From positions 1,280-65,279 of the forward strand of contig JAKAKP010000140.1 in assembly GCA_021813445.1 (NCBI GenBank): 64,000 bases of DNA. The letters are read 5' to 3'. Source of the DNA: Deltaproteobacteria bacterium. GTDB lineage: Bacteria > Desulfobacterota > Desulfobaccia > Desulfobaccales > 0-14-0-80-60-11. The notes beneath the pieces are model-generated. The model was not told the DNA's origin. It did no database searches and was given only the letters and a program-made list of their open reading frames with translations. Every line of letters starts with the position of its first letter. Position 1 is the first letter of the stretch. This document shows positions 2,735-63,318 of this stretch, one piece after another. The translations under genes were made by a program, and so were the position numbers.

Positions 2735-3358
2735 TCAATCCAGGCTTTTGACGATATTTAATAGATGCCCTAAAATTTCCCGAAAGCGTTTCAGGAGGTC
2801 GATGTAAATGGACCAGGCGTCGGCCTGGCCTGGACTATCCATCATGCGGGTTTCATGCTCCGCTTCATTACGGAAACAACTGTCTCTGAGCTTCTCCCCT
2901 TCGGTTAGGACGTAAGCCTTCAGGGAAGCATCATTAATATGGAAGATATCAACCAGGGTGCTCATAACTCCGGTCAGCCGGGAAAACAGATCGTTGATGA
3001 AAAACAAATCCTGATCCGCCAGGATGGCCCCGCGGTTGCCCTTACGGCGTATGGGGTCCGCGAGTTTAGCGATCTTGTCCGCCATTGCTTCCATCTGGAA
3101 GACTATCCCTTGATGTTTGAGTAGATCAGGCTTTTCCCCTTCGGTGCAATTCTTTAAGTTTATTTCTAATTTCTCAAAAATCGGGTCCAGGTCCAAAATG
3201 ATATCATCCCGCAGCCGGGCAATTTCTGCCAATTCTGCCTGACTGTGCCGGTTGAAGGCGTGCCGCGCCGCCACCAGCATGAGGCGCAGATTGTCCATCG
3301 TGGGCCATAACTCCTTCATCAGGAGCAAAAAGGCCTCCTTTTTCGATTCCCCTGTCAC
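2735..3358 (-). CDS. Cytoplasmic helical hypothetical protein (possibly PhoU/DUF47-like)
   Basis: 207-aa ORF with charged, helical composition and normal codon usage. Function is not established from the sequence. Confidence 0.5.
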   Translation of the reverse strand: MTGESKKEAFLLLMKELWPTMDNLRLMLVAARHAFNRHSQAELAEIARLRDDIILDLDPIFEKLEINLKNCTEGEKPDLLKHQGIVFQMEAMADKIAKLADPIRRKGNRGAILADQDLFFINDLFSRLTGVMSTLVDIFHINDASLKAYVLTEGEKLRDSCFRNEAEHETRMMDSPGQADAWSIYIDLLKRFREILGHLLNIVKSLD

Positions 3359-3719
3359 GGTGTCTCCTCATTATCCTGGAATAGTTGTTTTCGCGGCTGC
3401 TCCCGGTCAGGCTTTATCGCGCTGAGACTATTATAATACCTAAAGAGCCGTAAAAGTCCTCAGCGCCGCCCAGGTGTGAATTAATTTCTTCTTCCCGATT
3501 CCGTGGAAAAATGGGTAGTGGGTTCTTGCTTTGTCCAGGCAATGGCTGCAATAAATCCAGCTCCATATCTTCTATCATTGCCAGAGGTGGATCTGCAGAT
3601 GGACTTAGGGGTTGCATCTCCAACTATCGTTATTAATTTTTACCCAAGTTCTGCCGGCTCACATAGCCTGCAGTAAGTCTTTCTGCACACCATGAACCCC
3701 AACTTTTCAGGATGTAATC

Positions 3720-4610
3720 ATGGGAAACCAGGATTCACCCAAATTTATGGCACTCTGGCCACAGGTATGGGTACTGTTAAAAAATACGTATGGGGAATGG
3801 AGCAAAGTGGATGCCCCGGTATTGGGAGCAGCCCTGGCCTTTTATACCATTTTTTCTCTGGCCCCGATTTTCATCATTGTGGTGGCCATTGCCGGAGTTA
3901 TTTTAGGCAGGGAATCCGTCCAGATATATATCATGGGCCAACTGGCGCAATTTGTAGGGCAGCATAATGCGTCAAGTATTATCCATATTATTCAGAATAG
4001 CTATAAAGTCGGCTCCGGTTTCGGAGCCACGATAATTGCTATTATCCTGATTCTTGTTGGCTCTACCACAGCCTTTGTCATGCTGAAAAATGCCTTAGAT
4101 ACCATTTGGGGAGTAAGCCATGCCGGCGGCTTGATAAATATAATTAAAAGCCGTTTAAAATCATTATTAGTCGTTTTATCTATAGGATTCTTATTATTAA
4201 TCTCAATGATATTGAGTTCGGTCATCTATGCCATGCAAAAATTTATGGGCGATATTATGCATATTCCATTCAACGTGATTGCCCTGAGTAATAATGTTTT
4301 GATGATCGTTATGGTTGCTTTTTTGTTTGCCATGTTATTTAAGATACTGCCGGATGTGAAAATTTCCTGGGGAGACGTCTGGATCGGAGGGGCAATAACC
4401 GCGGTATTATTTGCTTTAGGGAAATACCTCCTCGGCTTATACCTGGCGCGCAGCAGCATCAGCTCGGCTTATGGCGCTGCCGGTTCCCTGGTAGTCTTTC
4501 TGATGTGGGTCTATTATTCCGCCCAGATCTTTTTCTTCGGTGCGGTCTTCACCCGGGTTTATGTCAGAAGTTATGGCCCCGCAATAATCCCCCAGAAACC
4601 TGAAGGCTAG
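3720..4610 (+). CDS. YihY/BrkB (virulence factor BrkB / former RNase BN) family membrane protein
   Basis: 296 aa. The N-terminal ...GEWSKVDAPVLGAALAFYTIFSLAPIFII... signature is followed by 5-6 TM helices, which is characteristic of the YihY family. Confidence 0.85.
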   Translation: MGNQDSPKFMALWPQVWVLLKNTYGEWSKVDAPVLGAALAFYTIFSLAPIFIIVVAIAGVILGRESVQIYIMGQLAQFVGQHNASSIIHIIQNSYKVGSGFGATIIAIILILVGSTTAFVMLKNALDTIWGVSHAGGLINIIKSRLKSLLVVLSIGFLLLISMILSSVIYAMQKFMGDIMHIPFNVIALSNNVLMIVMVAFLFAMLFKILPDVKISWGDVWIGGAITAVLFALGKYLLGLYLARSSISSAYGAAGSLVVFLMWVYYSAQIFFFGAVFTRVYVRSYGPAIIPQKPEG

Positions 4611-5050
4611 GGCAGCTTGAGCGTCACCTGCCATCGGGGTGACCAAGCCCCTCACCAAAGGGGTGACTCTGTCGGTGGGACGCAAGTTAAATCCCGCGGA
4701 GGGGGATAATCCGTGCAATTGCGCCTGGAATACCGTATCAACCGCCATTTCAGCCTGGAAGCGGAAGGAGGTCAGAACCGGAAGGCAGCCGATGCCTTGT
4801 TCAACTATGAATGGTATTTCCCTGTATCCGATCAGGGGAATAAGTGCCGGTTAACCTTCGGCTAGATCGCCAGGTTTTGTTTAGGGCACCCAAGGCAATT
4901 CAAGATCCATTCTCGGGTTAGTTAAGAATGCCGATTACTCCTAGGTGCAAAGTCAAGTTCCAACGGCGCCCCGGTATTCTTTATAGAATCCAAGCCAGTC
5001 TCCTATTCGTGGTACCCCTCGCAAGTAGGACCGCAAGGAAGGTCGCGGAG

Positions 5051-57175: not shown

Positions 57176-57261
57176 AGCGGTGTCTTCATCCCTTTGCTAA
57201 TTGCATCAGGAGAGTGCTGGAGACTCCCAAAGAGCTTGAAAAACGATTCCTCTTGAACGCA

Positions 57262-57289
57262 GGCGGACCTGCGGGTCCGCCCTGGTTTT
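57262..57289 (+). terminator. Candidate rho-independent terminator after the C10 peptidase gene
   Basis: GGCGGACC-tgcg-GGTCCGCC, followed by CTGGTTTTA. Confidence 0.5.
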
Positions 57290-57583
57290 ATGGAGACACC
57301 CGCCACCTACTTGCTGCCCCCCAGACCATCCTGGTTTGATCTCCAATTTGGTGTAACCCTATTAGCTACCTGGAAAATTTGTGAACGTTTTCTTTTTCAC
57401 TTCTAGACATTATTTGGGGAAAAGGCTTGCGAATTGAGTCAATCCTACCGATTTTTACATTATATGGCGTCTCAAAGATTTCCTAGAGGTAGTGGCCGGA
57501 AACCAAGCTGAATATGGGAATAGTTCCTCTCCCTGCGGCCCTTTCCGGCCTCCGGATCGGCGAAACTGCGGGAGGTGAGAACC

Positions 57584-57799
57584 ATGGGAGAAATTATTGA
57601 TTTCCACCTGACCAAAAAATCCATTTACCGGGCCGCGGTCAAAGAAATGGAGCGGATGTACCAGCTCTCCCACGGCGGCGACGACCCTATCGTGGACGAC
57701 TCCTCCCGGGAGATGTTCGAGCGAGGGGAGATTGACGAAGTGAAATGGCTGAGTTGGGAGCGGTACTGCACAAAAGTCTTGAATTTGCTGGGGGACTAG
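57584..57799 (+). CDS. Small acidic hypothetical protein (71 aa)
   Basis: ATG at 57584 has GGAGG 8 nt upstream. The opposite-strand ORF 57455-57853 lacks any such signal. Confidence 0.4.
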   Translation: MGEIIDFHLTKKSIYRAAVKEMERMYQLSHGGDDPIVDDSSREMFERGEIDEVKWLSWERYCTKVLNLLGD

Positions 57800-58277
57800 C
57801 ATATGGAAAAAGAAGCCGTATGAGCGGCCAGTTGAAATGATTTTTGATAGCACGTATTCTTACATCGATGCGGAATTCAAAAGCCGTGTGCCCGGGGGGA
57901 AACCGCGGTCATGGTTTTGGTCCAGGCCAACCCTGATGCCGCCCAGTTTGACGATATTTCCCCCGCTACCGGCGTTGGCTCACTTTTTTGGGTTATGACC
58001 CGGTTTTCCTGGTCCGGGCCACCGGCGTCAAAAACTCCGGGGATATTAACGGGCAAGGCGCGGTGCTGGCGGAGGCTGCGTCCCTGGCCCGGCGAATAAT
58101 AAATAAATAGGGCGCTTCCTATCTTTCCCCGCCATGATCGCCCTTGATTTTTTCAGGCCAGGTCTTATTTTCAGCTTACCCGCCTGAATGACAATCAATG
58201 ACATCGAGCCGCTCCAACAGCAGAAGGTGGAGTTCCACTGGTGGAGGGAAATCTGTCGTTTATCTGAAGGTAGAAAC

Positions 58278-58667
58278 ATGGAAAACCCCAGAAAAAATGT
58301 ATTGGTGGTGGACGACGTTGAAGTCACCAGGAAGATTATCTGCAATATTCTTAAATGGATCGGTTTTGAAAAAATCTTTGAAGCTGAAGATGGGAATACC
58401 GCCCTCTCTATTCTGGAGGAATCCAGGGTGGACCTAATCATTACCGACTGGAATATGCCCCAAATGTCCGGTTTGGAGCTTGTGCAAAAGATTCGGGCCA
58501 ACCCCAAGCATCAACATAGTCCGGTGCTGATGGTCACCGCCGAGGGTCAGGAGGAGTATCTTCTGGCCGCAGTAAAAGCCGGGATAGACAATTATGTGGT
58601 CAAGCCTTTTAAGGCGGAAATGCTAAAGGAGCAGATCGAGATAGCTTTCAAGAAGCATAGTGCTTAA
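58278..58667 (+). CDS. Single-domain CheY-like response regulator
   Basis: MENPRKNVLVVDDVEV...DLIITDWNMPQMSG...VLMVTAEG...YVVKPF. All REC signature positions are present. Confidence 0.9.
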   Translation: MENPRKNVLVVDDVEVTRKIICNILKWIGFEKIFEAEDGNTALSILEESRVDLIITDWNMPQMSGLELVQKIRANPKHQHSPVLMVTAEGQEEYLLAAVKAGIDNYVVKPFKAEMLKEQIEIAFKKHSA

Positions 58668-60013: not shown

Positions 60014-61237
60014 TTGCAAATCGGCCCTGACGGTTTTTTTCATCTCACCTACTGCACCAAGATTCATCCCGGCACCGGCTGGGAGGAACTCTGCCACCAC
60101 CTCCATACTCAAGTGCCCCGGCTTAAAGAGAGGTTATCCCCGGCCCAACCCTTCGGCCTGGGCCTGCGCCTCTCCGCAGGGGAATGCGAGGAGCTGCTGA
60201 CGGGAAGAAATCTGGAGGAGTTCCAGGAATTTTTGGCCGCCCAGGGTCTTTACGTCTTTACCATGAACGGCTTTCCCTACGGGGCCTTCCACGGCGGCCA
60301 GCGGGTCAAGGCCCAGGTCTTTGCCCCGGACTGGCAGACTGAAGACCGGGTGCGCTACACCCTGCGCCTCATAGAGATTCTCCGGCAACTGCTGCCTCCG
60401 GGCCTGGAAGGGTCCATCTCCACCTCCCCTCTTTCTTACAAGCCCTGGGTCAGGCCCGGGGACGCCGCGACCCGGGAGCGGATCGCCGCCAACCTGGCCG
60501 CGGTGGTGGCGGCCATGGCCCGCATCCGGGACGAAGACGGGACCTTGATCCACCTGGACCTGGAGCCGGAGCCGGACGGCCTGGTGGAAAACAGCGGGGA
60601 GTTGGCCGGGGTCTTCCGGGATTGGCTGCTGCCCCAGGCCGCGCCCCTCCTGGCCCGGGCGACCGGCATCTCTGTGGCCGCGGCCAGGGAGAGCCTGCTG
60701 ACCCACCTCCGGGTCTGCCTGGATACCTGCCACCTGGCCGTAGCCTACGAAGACCCGGCTGCGGCCCTGGATGCCTTGGCGCAGGAAGGCGTCCAGGTGG
60801 GCAAGGTGCAGATCACCGCGGGCCTAAAAGCGCTCCTGCCCCGGGACGCGGCCGGCCGGGCCGCGCTGGCCCGGCAGCTCCAGGATTTTGCCCCTTCTCC
60901 CTACCTGCACCAGGTCCTGGTCCGGAAAAACGGCGGCGGCCTGGGGCAATTCCCGGACCTCCCGGAGGCGCTGCCCACCCTGGCCGCCGGCCGGGACCGG
61001 GAGTGGCGCATCCATTACCATACCCCCCTTTTCGTGGCGGGCCACGGGCTGCTCCGGTCCACCCGGGACGAAACCCGGGAGGTGCTCAATCTCCTGGGGC
61101 AGCGGGGTTTTTGCCGCCACCTGGAGATCGAAACCTACACCTGGGAGATCCTCCCCCCGGAGCTGAAAAAGGACCTGGTGGACTCCCTGGAACTGGAATA
61201 CCGCTGGGTGTTGGGTAACCTCGGCTTTTGTCTTTGA
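60014..61237 (+). CDS. Xylose-isomerase-like TIM-barrel protein resembling EboE
   Basis: The N-terminus FHLTYCTKIHPGTGWEEL......PFGLGLRLSAGECEEL matches my recollection of EboE proteins. 407 aa, TTG start. Confidence 0.7.
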   Translation: MQIGPDGFFHLTYCTKIHPGTGWEELCHHLHTQVPRLKERLSPAQPFGLGLRLSAGECEELLTGRNLEEFQEFLAAQGLYVFTMNGFPYGAFHGGQRVKAQVFAPDWQTEDRVRYTLRLIEILRQLLPPGLEGSISTSPLSYKPWVRPGDAATRERIAANLAAVVAAMARIRDEDGTLIHLDLEPEPDGLVENSGELAGVFRDWLLPQAAPLLARATGISVAAARESLLTHLRVCLDTCHLAVAYEDPAAALDALAQEGVQVGKVQITAGLKALLPRDAAGRAALARQLQDFAPSPYLHQVLVRKNGGGLGQFPDLPEALPTLAAGRDREWRIHYHTPLFVAGHGLLRSTRDETREVLNLLGQRGFCRHLEIETYTWEILPPELKKDLVDSLELEYRWVLGNLGFCL

Positions 61238-61313
61238 ACAAGACAAAGATATTTTAAAATTTAGAAATCTGTGATAAGATGTGTAAGTTAAAGGGATTTT
61301 ATGGAATCTTGCT

Positions 61314-62009
61314 ATGAGATCAACCATACAGATTCAATTTAAATATTCAAGTGCAATTAAGATAATTTTTATCATTGCGTTTATATTCTGTGCTTTCACG
61401 TTCCTTACCCTGGGAATTCTTCTTTCTGGATTGAAATCCAGCGACTGGCTCACAGCTTATTTAACTTTTTACCTGGGGATAGCAACGGTTATATTGGCCC
61501 TAACGACTGCTGTAGTAATTATATGGCAGGGCCAACAACTAAAAAAGCAATTAGAATTACAAGTTATAACGGAATTATACAAAGAATGGAATGGGGAAGA
61601 ATTATTCGATGCGAGATGTAACTTATGTCAAATTTTAAATTCTGGAGGAGTAATCACAGAATTTGGCGGGGAAACATTAGAAAAAGTGGAAAATGTATTA
61701 GAGTTTCTTGAAAGGATAGCGTCATATTATGAGAATGAGGTATTGTCACGAAAGCTAGTTTGGGATACGTTTGGTTTTTATATCATGAGATATTATTTCT
61801 ATACACAAAATGCTATCAAAGAAATTCATATTAAATGGAGCAATGATGAAACATTATATAGAGACCTTGCTAATCTATATAAGGATTTAATGGATTATGA
61901 ATGTAAGGAGCGTAATAAAAGCAGAGATGAATTGGAGAGAACTTTTATAAATGAAATAAATAAATTTAAAAAATCCGAATGCTATGAAATTCACAAAACT
62001 GATAATTGA
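61314..62009 (+). CDS. Low-GC membrane-anchored hypothetical protein (possibly DUF4760-like)
   Basis: Two N-terminal TM helices followed by a soluble K/E/N-rich domain. It lies in DNA where a counted sample (61321-61380) has 15/60 G+C. Confidence 0.55.
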   Translation: MRSTIQIQFKYSSAIKIIFIIAFIFCAFTFLTLGILLSGLKSSDWLTAYLTFYLGIATVILALTTAVVIIWQGQQLKKQLELQVITELYKEWNGEELFDARCNLCQILNSGGVITEFGGETLEKVENVLEFLERIASYYENEVLSRKLVWDTFGFYIMRYYFYTQNAIKEIHIKWSNDETLYRDLANLYKDLMDYECKERNKSRDELERTFINEINKFKKSECYEIHKTDN

Positions 62010-62571
62010 ATTGAAGCCATCACGAATTGATAATGGCGGCGTAGGAGTGTTTGCCGTAGTCGCTATTAAGAAAAGAGAAAAAGTCACGGATGGCATCCCA
62101 ATAGAAGACTTCTCCGGGGTAGTCCCTTGGGGGGAGTTTGAATATTTAAATAAAGAATTACAAAAAAAAGTAATGGATTTCTGCGTTGGGACCTCTGAAG
62201 GCTTTATTCCACCTGATGACAATGATTTTAATAAATTATCCATCGAATGGTACTTTAATCACTCATGCAATGGAAATCTTGGCTTCGATAAAAATGGTGA
62301 TTTTATTGCAATCAGAGATATTAAGAAGGGAGAAGAATTAACTTATGATTATGGTCTAATAGAATCAAATCCAAACTTCAAGATGGAATGTAAATGCCCA
62401 GATATTAATTGCCGGCATATTATTACCGGAAATGATTGGAAATTCTTATCGAAAGACAAATCCAAAATGAAATACATGCACCCTTTCATAATATCGCTTA
62501 TTAGACAGGATCAGGCCATGAAGGGTATGACAAAAAGTATTGATGAGGCTGATAGAGGGTTACGAATGTAA
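61984..62571 (+). CDS. SET-domain protein (putative protein-lysine methyltransferase)
   Basis: GVGVFAVVAIKKREKV..., YFNHSCNGNL (NHSCxPN-like), GEELTYDYG, and a post-SET-like CKCPDINCRH. It overlaps the upstream gene by 26 nt. Confidence 0.8.
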   Translation: MKFTKLIIELKPSRIDNGGVGVFAVVAIKKREKVTDGIPIEDFSGVVPWGEFEYLNKELQKKVMDFCVGTSEGFIPPDDNDFNKLSIEWYFNHSCNGNLGFDKNGDFIAIRDIKKGEELTYDYGLIESNPNFKMECKCPDINCRHIITGNDWKFLSKDKSKMKYMHPFIISLIRQDQAMKGMTKSIDEADRGLRM

Positions 62572-62607
62572 ATATGCTATCCCTTATAACTTCCTGTTAT
62601 CCAAAGA

Positions 62608-63318
62608 TCATTTCCCCTTCTTCGTCGCCAACTCCTCCATCACCGCCAGTTGAATCTGCTGGATCTCCAGCAGGCGCCGCCATTGCCGGGTCAGCAGCAG
62701 GTCCATCTTTTCGTTGAGATGGCGCACCTCCAGCTCCGCCTTGAGATTCACCCGGTAGTCGTATTCCGAGCGCAGGCGGTCTTTGGCGTCCTGGCGGTTC
62801 TGGCTCATGAGAATAATGGGGGCCTGGACCGCCGACATCATGGAAAAGACCAGGTTTAAAAAGATGAAAGGGTAGGGGTCGAAGGGACGAACAATCCAGA
62901 CATAGGAATTGACCGCGAACCATAAGCAGGTGAAAAAGAGGAAGGAGAGGATAAAGGCCCAACTGCCGCCCCAGGCCGCCACCTTGTCGGAGAGCCTCTC
63001 CCAAAAAGTCAGGTCCTGCTCAAAGGCCACGTTGATATTCCGGGACAGCAACTCATGCTCCTTTAAGCGATCCAGCAAGCCGGTTTGCAGGGTCTCGATC
63101 TCCCCGATTCCTTCCTTGAGCACTTCCTCCACGTATTTGCCCCGGAACCGGTTCAGGTCCTGGAGACAGATGTAGCCCCGGCTGGACCACTCCGGGCATT
63201 CTTCCCGGATGGTTTTCTCCACCCCCTCCCGGACCAATTCCCCGGGCCAGACTTCGTCCAGGGTTTTGGGCTGCCTGCAAATCTGGCAGGTCACCTGCGC
63301 GTTGGGTGCATTTTCCAT
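62608..63318 (-). CDS. DUF1003-domain membrane protein
   Basis: ...GSWAFILSFLFFTCLWFAVN...FDPYPFIFLNLVFSMMSAVQAPIILMSQNRQDAKDRLRSEYDYRVNLKAELE..., the conserved DUF1003 core. An N-terminal CxxC is present. Confidence 0.85.
   Translation of the reverse strand: MENAPNAQVTCQICRQPKTLDEVWPGELVREGVEKTIREECPEWSSRGYICLQDLNRFRGKYVEEVLKEGIGEIETLQTGLLDRLKEHELLSRNINVAFEQDLTFWERLSDKVAAWGGSWAFILSFLFFTCLWFAVNSYVWIVRPFDPYPFIFLNLVFSMMSAVQAPIILMSQNRQDAKDRLRSEYDYRVNLKAELEVRHLNEKMDLLLTRQWRRLLEIQQIQLAVMEELATKKGK

Follow-up and report, generated by a model that had tools for sequence, protein, structure and literature searches.

The DNA analysed here (hereafter the window) is a stretch of 64,000 nucleotides (nt) from contig JAKAKP010000140.1 (GenBank assembly GCA_021813445.1, Desulfobaccales). 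Towards its right end, at 61238-62607, lies an AT-rich island with two overlapping open reading frames (ORFs): ORF A, which encodes a DUF4760 membrane protein, and ORF B, which encodes a SET-domain protein. On balance, we favour the following reading: the pair is a horizontally acquired, self-contained two-gene operon that entered the variable spacer between eboE and a DUF1003 gene in a Desulfobaccales lineage, and its products form a membrane-tethered methyltransferase. ORF A would insert in the inner membrane, with its helical DUF4760 domain in the cytoplasm, and ORF B would be made by coupled translation from the overlapping frame. ORF A would then bind ORF B through the cytoplasmic DUF4760 domain, localising or regulating the SET protein, which would methylate a conserved amine, most probably of a protein lysine, on a target at or near the membrane in an S-adenosylmethionine-dependent manner.

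Comparison of loci indicated that the membrane protein and the SET protein form a conserved module. For the survey, one genome per GTDB species was scanned, which gave 46 loci, all in metagenome-assembled genomes (MAGs). These loci span Nitrospirota, Thermodesulfovibrionales, Acidobacteriota, several Desulfobacterota and Syntrophales, Binataceae (Binatota), Bacteroidota, Ignavibacteria, Kryptoniota, several groups of the Candidate Phyla Radiation (CPR) and one Micrarchaeota archaeon (DPANN). The hosts are environmental MAGs of uncultured anaerobes, mostly sampled in bog, peat and sediment and also in soil. A DUF4760-type gene was found on the same strand, immediately upstream of the SET gene, in 27 of the 46 loci and in every close metagenomic homologue examined; the association that an earlier note on this DNA had described from the letters of the window is thus recurrent elsewhere. 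The position of the partner stop relative to the SET start was measured in 17 loci and ranged from 1 nt before to 59 nt past it (commonest overlaps: 8, 26 and 32 nt). For example, a DUF5677 gene and a short-chain dehydrogenase gene flank the overlapping pair in L001, another member of the Desulfobaccales, and ruvB and queH do so in a Syntrophaceae MAG (L013/L019).

The two proteins were also found as single polypeptides: the genes are fused at locus L048, and P0128 (358 amino acids, aa), P0197 (382 aa, with both Pfam domains) and P0211 (426 aa) are independent DUF4760-SET fusion proteins, the last sharing length and domain layout with the L048 fusion. At seven of the 46 loci (Bacteroidota, Ignavibacteria, Kryptoniota and the Micrarchaeota contig), the partner position was held by an unrelated protein of approximately 190 aa with four transmembrane (TM) helices and no Pfam match, encoded upstream in an overlapping position like that of DUF4760. 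This protein was fused to SET in three of the seven (L016/P0032, L037 and L049) and was encoded by a separate upstream gene in L024, L026, L033 and L056. It carries an invariant acidic cytoplasmic loop, EK(L/I)(S/T)DALDE(D/K)DV(D/K)KY, and a tail of the form KW..D...Y..Y.EL.G. The possibility that the four-TM protein is a diverged DUF4760 was rejected, since hhalign gave a probability of 1.8% against the DUF4760 partners. Two unrelated proteins therefore occupy the same position and both occur fused N-terminally to SET, which is the strongest clue to the mechanism: their common trait is a membrane anchor, which would place SET on the cytoplasmic face.

Other arrangements were seen in the survey. 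The SET gene stood alone in CPR genomes L034, L038, L045, L051, L052, L054 and L059, where its G+C content equals that of the host, unlike in most other hosts. In the Micrarchaeota locus L037, the four-TM-SET fusion adjoins a gene resembling type IIG restriction-modification systems. Decayed copies were found in Acidobacteriota and in one proteobacterial MAG (L057:5260-6491, L058:5312-6470 and L050:5572-5808): either SET is split over two frames, or the partner is a frameshifted remnant (..LEPILEFLEEFAGFRKR..).

ORF B is predicted to be a catalytically intact SET and post-SET methyltransferase. It matched the Pfam SET profile PF00856 over its whole length (positions 1-105 of 105) with 42.4 bits (cut-off 22.4) and an E-value of 1e-10. 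The motifs are NHSC (92-95), Y123 within ELTYDYG, the post-SET cysteines C136, C138 and C143 (CxCx4C) and a family-specific TGNDWK (148-153). In a 38-member alignment, H93, C95, Y123, C136, C138 and C143 were invariant and N92 and S94 nearly so; the family-specific W49, W89 and most of TGNDWK were likewise invariant. NHSC and ELxYDY align with the same motifs of MLL4 and ASH1L, and the three post-SET cysteines align with those of ASH1L and MLL; together with the cysteine of NHxC, they constitute a putative zinc cluster. Residues ~176-195 form a lineage-specific C-terminal extension.

The family profile matched KMT2/MLL (KMT2D, 4e-12), ASH1L (1e-8) and BurB (2.6e-8) in the PDB. An AlphaFold2 model of ORF B was of high confidence (predicted local distance difference test, pLDDT, 93.5), and a Foldseek search with this model returned 292 PDB matches at E<=1e-3, the best 50 of which are all SET domains. 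ASH1L was the best match (E 3e-8, TM-score 0.54); ASH1L, NSD1 and MLL gave E-values of 3e-8 to 1e-7 with TM-scores of about 0.5, and BurB 1e-6. ORF B shares with KMT2/MLL, ASH1L and NSD, its best matches in sequence and fold, the SET fold, NHSC, ELxYDY and the CxCx4C motif of the post-SET zinc cluster. Unlike these enzymes, it is minimal (175-195 aa in the family), has no AWS/pre-SET or reader domains, is only 20-27% identical to them, belongs to a family with the additional invariant W49, W89 and TGNDWK, and is a bacterial protein whose gene overlaps one for a membrane protein.

Relatives of ORF B were collected by a word-indexed search of 5.8 billion proteins. It returned 381 relatives, the best 120 of which all had E < 1e-59; nearly all of these had lengths of 170-195 aa and identities to ORF B of 53-91%. 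Across more than ten phyla of uncultured bacteria the family is 55-77% identical. The SET motifs described in the earlier note thus pass profile alignment to Pfam and PDB and are matched by the fold, and its description of bacterial SET proteins as sporadic does not fit this highly conserved family.

ORF A exceeded the Pfam cut-off for DUF4760 (PF15956; 31.2 bits, cut-off 25) with only profile positions 72-139 of 141, and the homologous fusion P0197 covers positions 2-137; precomputed Pfam labels of ORF A homologues agree. The AlphaFold2 model (pLDDT 89) has TM helices at 11-37 and 44-~70, the second of which extends as a long juxtamembrane helix and leads to a compact eight-helix bundle. Family members have one or two TM helices, and for both kinds the distribution of Lys and Arg places the DUF4760 domain in the cytoplasm. 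Q72, Q79, W92, R101, E130, W150, Y160, W175 and D178 are invariant in the family; no lysine is, and ORF A is therefore unlikely to be a fixed-site substrate of SET. In a Foldseek search with the ORF A model, the PDB gave no match (best E 0.7); a single viral protein was a borderline one.

The SET-linked DUF4760 proteins are a discrete clade inside the family: all 55 matches of a word-indexed profile search had E < 1e-25. An exhaustive profile search found 1412 representatives of the wider family at E<=1e-3, of which 66 reached E<=1e-30. The distant members examined (L150, L152/L153 and L154) are orphans without an adjacent SET gene, surrounded by many hypothetical genes or by DNA with the look of a mobile element. 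Proteins encoded beside them include SEC-C proteins, DUF3800, PRiA4_ORF3, an rve integrase and a terminase small subunit; a faint match to PycTM was also seen, and one of the distant DUF4760 genes sits in a Serratia genomic island. These surroundings suggest that the family beyond the SET-linked clade is associated with mobile elements or conflict systems. In the literature, DUF4760 was found in a single paper, as one passing mention, with no function for any member.

The island is an insertion, as is proved by its composition and by the empty sites of relatives. Its G+C content is 33.4%, the lowest of all 1370-nt windows of the 64 kb (others 57.9 ± 5.1%; z = -4.8), and its tetranucleotide distance to the remainder is 0.85, compared with at most 0.55 for windows outside the island. 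G+C at third codon positions (GC3) is 0.28 in ORF A and 0.35 in ORF B, versus 0.82 in eboE and 0.80 in the DUF1003 gene; the low G+C content is therefore not merely an effect of amino-acid composition.

To locate the corresponding site in relatives, metagenome contigs were scanned with the EboE protein. In the two nearest (L061 and L062; EboE 78-79% identical), eboE is directly convergent with the DUF1003 gene and the cassette is absent: the spacer consists of 127-141 nt of G+C-rich, palindromic DNA. The site is also empty in a Desulfobaccales MAG (L146, GCA_054635535.1), which has an unrelated 296-nt spacer there and is syntenic with the window from a peptidase C10 gene to glycosyltransferases, at 85-92% nucleotide identity on both sides. 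Homology detected by blastn ends at 61221 (L061 and L062) or 61218 (L146) and restarts at 62607 in all three, which delimits the insert as 61222-62606 (1385 bp), with ORF A and ORF B as its sole ORFs. EboE is 407 aa long in the window versus 420 aa in L146, and the insertion has remodelled its C-terminus.

A self-mobile integrative element was considered and rejected: the island boundaries have no direct repeats, no integrase, transposase, att site or Rfam element was found for the island, and there is no tRNA, a possible target, within the window. The arrival of the cassette was probably due to recombination and not to self-mobility. Since the spacer between eboE and the DUF1003 gene differs in every relative, the site tolerates change and is a hot spot of turnover. 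The spacers of L061 (1505-1585) and L062 (1725-1790) hold G+C-rich inverted repeats that resemble repetitive extragenic palindromic elements (GTAGGGGCGnACC..GGTGTnCGCCC ... GGGCG..CGCCCCTAC), and the L146 spacer at the same site has a different G/C-tract palindrome.

The earlier note had given the G+C counts exactly (47/60 at 60601-60660, 15/60 at 61321-61380), had called both genes and their overlap as found here, had labelled the flanks correctly (EboE, NCBIfam NF035939, E 3e-131; DUF1003, Pfam PF06210) and had taken the pair for a recently acquired cassette. Its acquisition is borne out by the atypical tetranucleotides and GC3 and by the empty sites in L146, L061 and L062, the pair not being conserved at this position in all relatives; the flanking direct repeats or att-like sites that the note had suggested looking for were not found. 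"Recent" holds in a relative sense only, as the cassette is already carried by a sister lineage, with a divergence like that of the flanks. All 10-15 contigs of the window's own species have it, and in the sister lineage (L006/L007, GCA_041890195.1) eboE, cassette and DUF1003 gene are colinear at ~90% nucleotide identity. The empty site in L146 and the occupied one in L006 date the entry to the interval between the divergence of the L146 lineage and the later divergence of the L006 lineage. Relative to the sister lineage, the ratio of nonsynonymous to synonymous substitution rates (dN/dS) was 0.23 for ORF A, 0.08 for ORF B and 0.27 for the adjacent part of eboE, with comparable dS (0.16, 0.52 and 0.24, respectively). 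These ratios indicate that, since its entry, the cassette has been inherited vertically as two functional genes under purifying selection; its composition is still foreign despite this.

The features of the cassette and its flanks are listed below.

Coordinates of the insert, its genes and the flanking host genes in the window
Feature	Position	Strand	Details and evidence
Host eboE, left flank	60014..61221	+	80-85% nucleotide identity to L061, L062, L146
Inserted DNA, 33% G+C	61222..62606	.	1385 bp; replaces the variable intergenic spacer of relatives (127-296 nt); blastn against empty sites, composition
End of eboE: last five codons and stop (..GFCL*) supplied by the insert	61222..61237	+	EboE C-terminus differs in relatives from here
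AT-rich palindrome, CTTTTGTCTT-TGAAC-AAGACAAAG, then T-rich run	61226..61248	+	across the eboE stop; also in sister L006
AT-rich leader, 76 nt	61238..61313	+	putative promoter TGTGATAAGAT (extended -10-like); AAGGGA, Shine-Dalgarno-like site
ORF A, membrane protein, DUF4760	61314..62009	+	231 aa; Pfam PF15956, AlphaFold2 model, homologues, positive-inside topology, dN/dS 0.23
ORF A/ORF B overlap	61984..62009	+	26 nt; ORF B in +1 frame relative to ORF A
ORF B, SET and post-SET	61984..62571	+	195 aa; Pfam SET, alignment, PDB profile matches, AlphaFold2 model, Foldseek, dN/dS 0.08
Host DUF1003 gene, right flank, convergent with eboE	62608..63318	-	85-92% nucleotide identity to L061, L062, L146

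The overlapping arrangement of the two genes suggests translational coupling. An ORF A-ORF B fusion produced by programmed frameshifting was discarded: ORF B lies in the +1 frame and no convincing shift site was seen by eye. The leader possibly holds a promoter borne by the cassette. A TGTGnTAnGAT motif is common to the leader and to the independent L001 cassette, a weak likeness among very few sequences, and consensus scans of the AT-rich island for promoters and terminators found nothing significant. The palindrome across the eboE stop may be a weak terminator or a scar of the junction; a terminator-like match lies beside it (61210-61225).

Elsewhere in the window, milder G+C dips were found at 57200-58500 (0.43-0.50), around a response-regulator gene with a GC3 of 0.58 (neighbours ~0.80), and at 3001-5000 (0.47-0.48). 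Between 58660 and 61237, only an eboD-like gene (3-dehydroquinate synthase family) and eboE stand together, and other ebo-cluster genes were not seen nearby; genes for a CheY-like response regulator and for C39-like and C10 peptidases precede this pair. L146 also has genes that the window or contigs of its species lack, at points that correspond to 57.8 kb and to 63.33-63.37 kb of the window: a gene for a flavodoxin-like protein precedes that of the response regulator, one for a Rieske/pyridine-nucleotide oxidoreductase lies between DUF1003 and dinB, and dinB is followed by a PIN/DUF6364 toxin-antitoxin pair.

The surroundings of the cassette were compared by taking the two nearest ORFs on each side at 44 loci (n = 148). 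No family was recurrent (at most 5 of 148), and the cassette would thus be self-contained; the neighbours are mostly housekeeping genes (gyrB, enoyl-CoA hydratases, hydrolases, histidine kinases and tRNA synthetases). In almost every host the cassette is poorer in G+C than the DNA on either side, most markedly in the window (0.34 versus 0.60) and L001 (0.32 versus 0.57), and least so in CPR and other low-G+C hosts. In a rough neighbour-joining tree of SET, the window copy groups with L001 and then with Nitrospirota copies, the Desulfobacterota copies are split among several clades, and the archaeal copy lies among bacterial ones. This pattern fits repeated horizontal transfer among organisms that share a habitat.

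With regard to function, we infer from the module that ORF A and ORF B would form a physical complex, that SET would be held at the membrane and that it would be enzymatically active, most probably on a protein lysine. The conservation of SET across phyla, beside a partner that diverges fast or is replaced, suggests that SET is constrained by a conserved cellular substrate and not by its partner. Several points weigh against the proposal of a membrane-tethered protein methyltransferase. The binding of ORF A to ORF B is itself something that we infer. SET without any partner occurs in CPR and a few other genomes, so the enzyme can work untethered. There is no pointer to a substrate, as the partner has no invariant lysine and no conserved third gene lies nearby; likewise, the DUF4760 domain has no fold relative among solved structures to hint at its role. 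Moreover, BurB is a small bacterial SET enzyme whose substrate is methionine, a small molecule, and not a protein (PMC12542666).

A conflict or defence function, which the earlier note had listed among the candidate roles, found no direct support and is unlikely. If the pair were such a selfish module (toxin-antitoxin, abortive infection or exclusion), the DUF4760 protein would be an effector or sensor, acting for instance by membrane perturbation, and SET would switch or neutralise it, or would modify an invader protein. The cassette has the appearance of such modules in being small, mobile and compositionally foreign, with overlapping genes, a patchy distribution and a different genomic context in every lineage. 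The decayed copies (L057, L058 and L050) and the orphan state of distant DUF4760 genes amid hypothetical and mobile-element genes can be read in the same way, and a few cassettes adjoin type IIG restriction-modification, Vsr-like or caspase-like genes. Against this, neither protein matched PADLOC or PHROGs (nor NCBIfam), and defence genes were not enriched among the 148 neighbouring ORFs, any one PADLOC family (for example restriction-modification, Dnd or Ssp) occurring only two or three times; a known anti-phage or toxin-antitoxin system was rejected on these grounds, with no defence-island location seen. No copy was found among mobile genomes: IMG/VR had no relative of the cassette, and INPHARED and PLSDB only distant partial matches to SET, with the partner unmatched. 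The high conservation of SET across phyla and its low dN/dS (0.08) are unlike those of arms-race proteins, the cassette is maintained vertically, and SET persists alone in CPR genomes. No literature was found that ties SET domains to anti-phage defence systems. A related possibility, to which we assign a distinctly low probability, is that the pair is a two-component conflict or signalling system built on lysine methylation, in which the DUF4760 or four-TM sensor/effector is switched by SET, or directs it, and which has spread horizontally among anaerobes, CPR and DPANN. If this were true, it would be the first SET-based system of such kind in prokaryotes.

The enzyme might instead act on a small molecule or a lipid head group, with the membrane partner positioning SET at the bilayer: the acceptor would be a free amine or thioether (as for BurB with methionine), or the head group of an ornithine lipid, a lysine lipid or phosphatidylethanolamine. 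The comparison with BurB (PDB 9l4t/9l4v), a solved methionine S-methyltransferase of Burkholderia, is relevant here, as this bacterial SET protein also stands alone, is similar in size (172 aa) and is among both the sequence and the fold matches of ORF B. A membrane tether would also suit a lipid-acting enzyme, a cation or quaternary amine might be bound in a pocket made of the partner residues W92, W150, Y160, W175, E126, E130 and D178, and most of the hosts are from bog, peat and sediment. We nevertheless regard this alternative as quite improbable. ORF B is closer to KMT2, ASH1L and NSD than to BurB (profile 4e-12 versus 2.6e-8; fold 3e-8 versus 1e-6), and the BurB match is confined to the C-terminal half. 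BurB sits in a biosynthetic gene cluster without a membrane partner, whereas the ORF B cassette has no biosynthetic neighbours; neither biosynthetic nor lipid genes recur beside it, and CPR and DPANN hosts have minimal lipid biosynthesis. Assignment of ORF B as a BurB-like methionine S-methyltransferase was rejected on the same closeness to KMT2D and ASH1L and the lack of a recurrent bur or dimethylsulfoniopropionate-type biosynthetic context. As BurB binds methionine through main-chain atoms (PMC12542666), there are no diagnostic residues to compare.

Several prokaryotic SET proteins that act on chromatin have been acquired horizontally, and these are either secreted pathogen effectors or soluble nucleoid enzymes. 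Chlamydia NUE, Legionella RomA/LegAS4 and the Methanosarcina MC1-alpha methylator are prokaryotic SET lysine methyltransferases, as ORF B would be. Unlike them, ORF B is paired or fused with a membrane anchor and belongs to free-living uncultured anaerobes. Methylation of a nucleoid protein (the chromatin or nucleoid role of the earlier note, made less likely by the conserved membrane tether), or of eukaryotic histones by a secreted effector in the manner of NUE and RomA, is highly improbable. In its favour, the SET and post-SET domain is most like those of eukaryotic histone lysine methyltransferases, and there are known prokaryotic SET proteins whose targets are host histones or chromatin proteins (PMC3980110, PMC2904774). 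In most non-CPR lineages, however, the partner is a membrane anchor with a cytoplasmic domain, sometimes fused to SET, and such an anchor speaks against secretion as well as against unhindered access to the nucleoid. The hosts (free-living uncultured anaerobes, CPR and a DPANN archaeon) are not intracellular pathogens and secretion-system genes are not recurrent nearby; a secreted SET effector of the NUE or RomA type was rejected in view of these environmental hosts, the cytoplasm-facing anchor and the lack of recurrent secretion genes.

In most discussions, bacterial SET proteins figure as rare eukaryotic-type imports or as effectors with which pathogens mimic histone methyltransferases. The SET domain itself and horizontally acquired bacterial SET genes were already known; in the literature, no description was found of a conserved operon of a membrane partner and SET, or of methylation by SET at the cytoplasmic membrane face. 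If the substrate of the membrane-tethered methyltransferase proposed here is an ordinary housekeeping protein, the finding would be a modest extension of known bacterial protein methylation. The compact two-gene system (1.3 kb) is suited to a search for the substrate by co-expression and methyl-proteomics. The pairing with SET provides the first functional association for the orphan family DUF4760. The cassette belongs to a group distinct from the rare imports and the pathogen effectors, one that is large, conserved and distributed over many phyla, and its overlapping genes, repeated fusions and two unrelated partners point to SET methylation having a function on the cytoplasmic side of the membrane.

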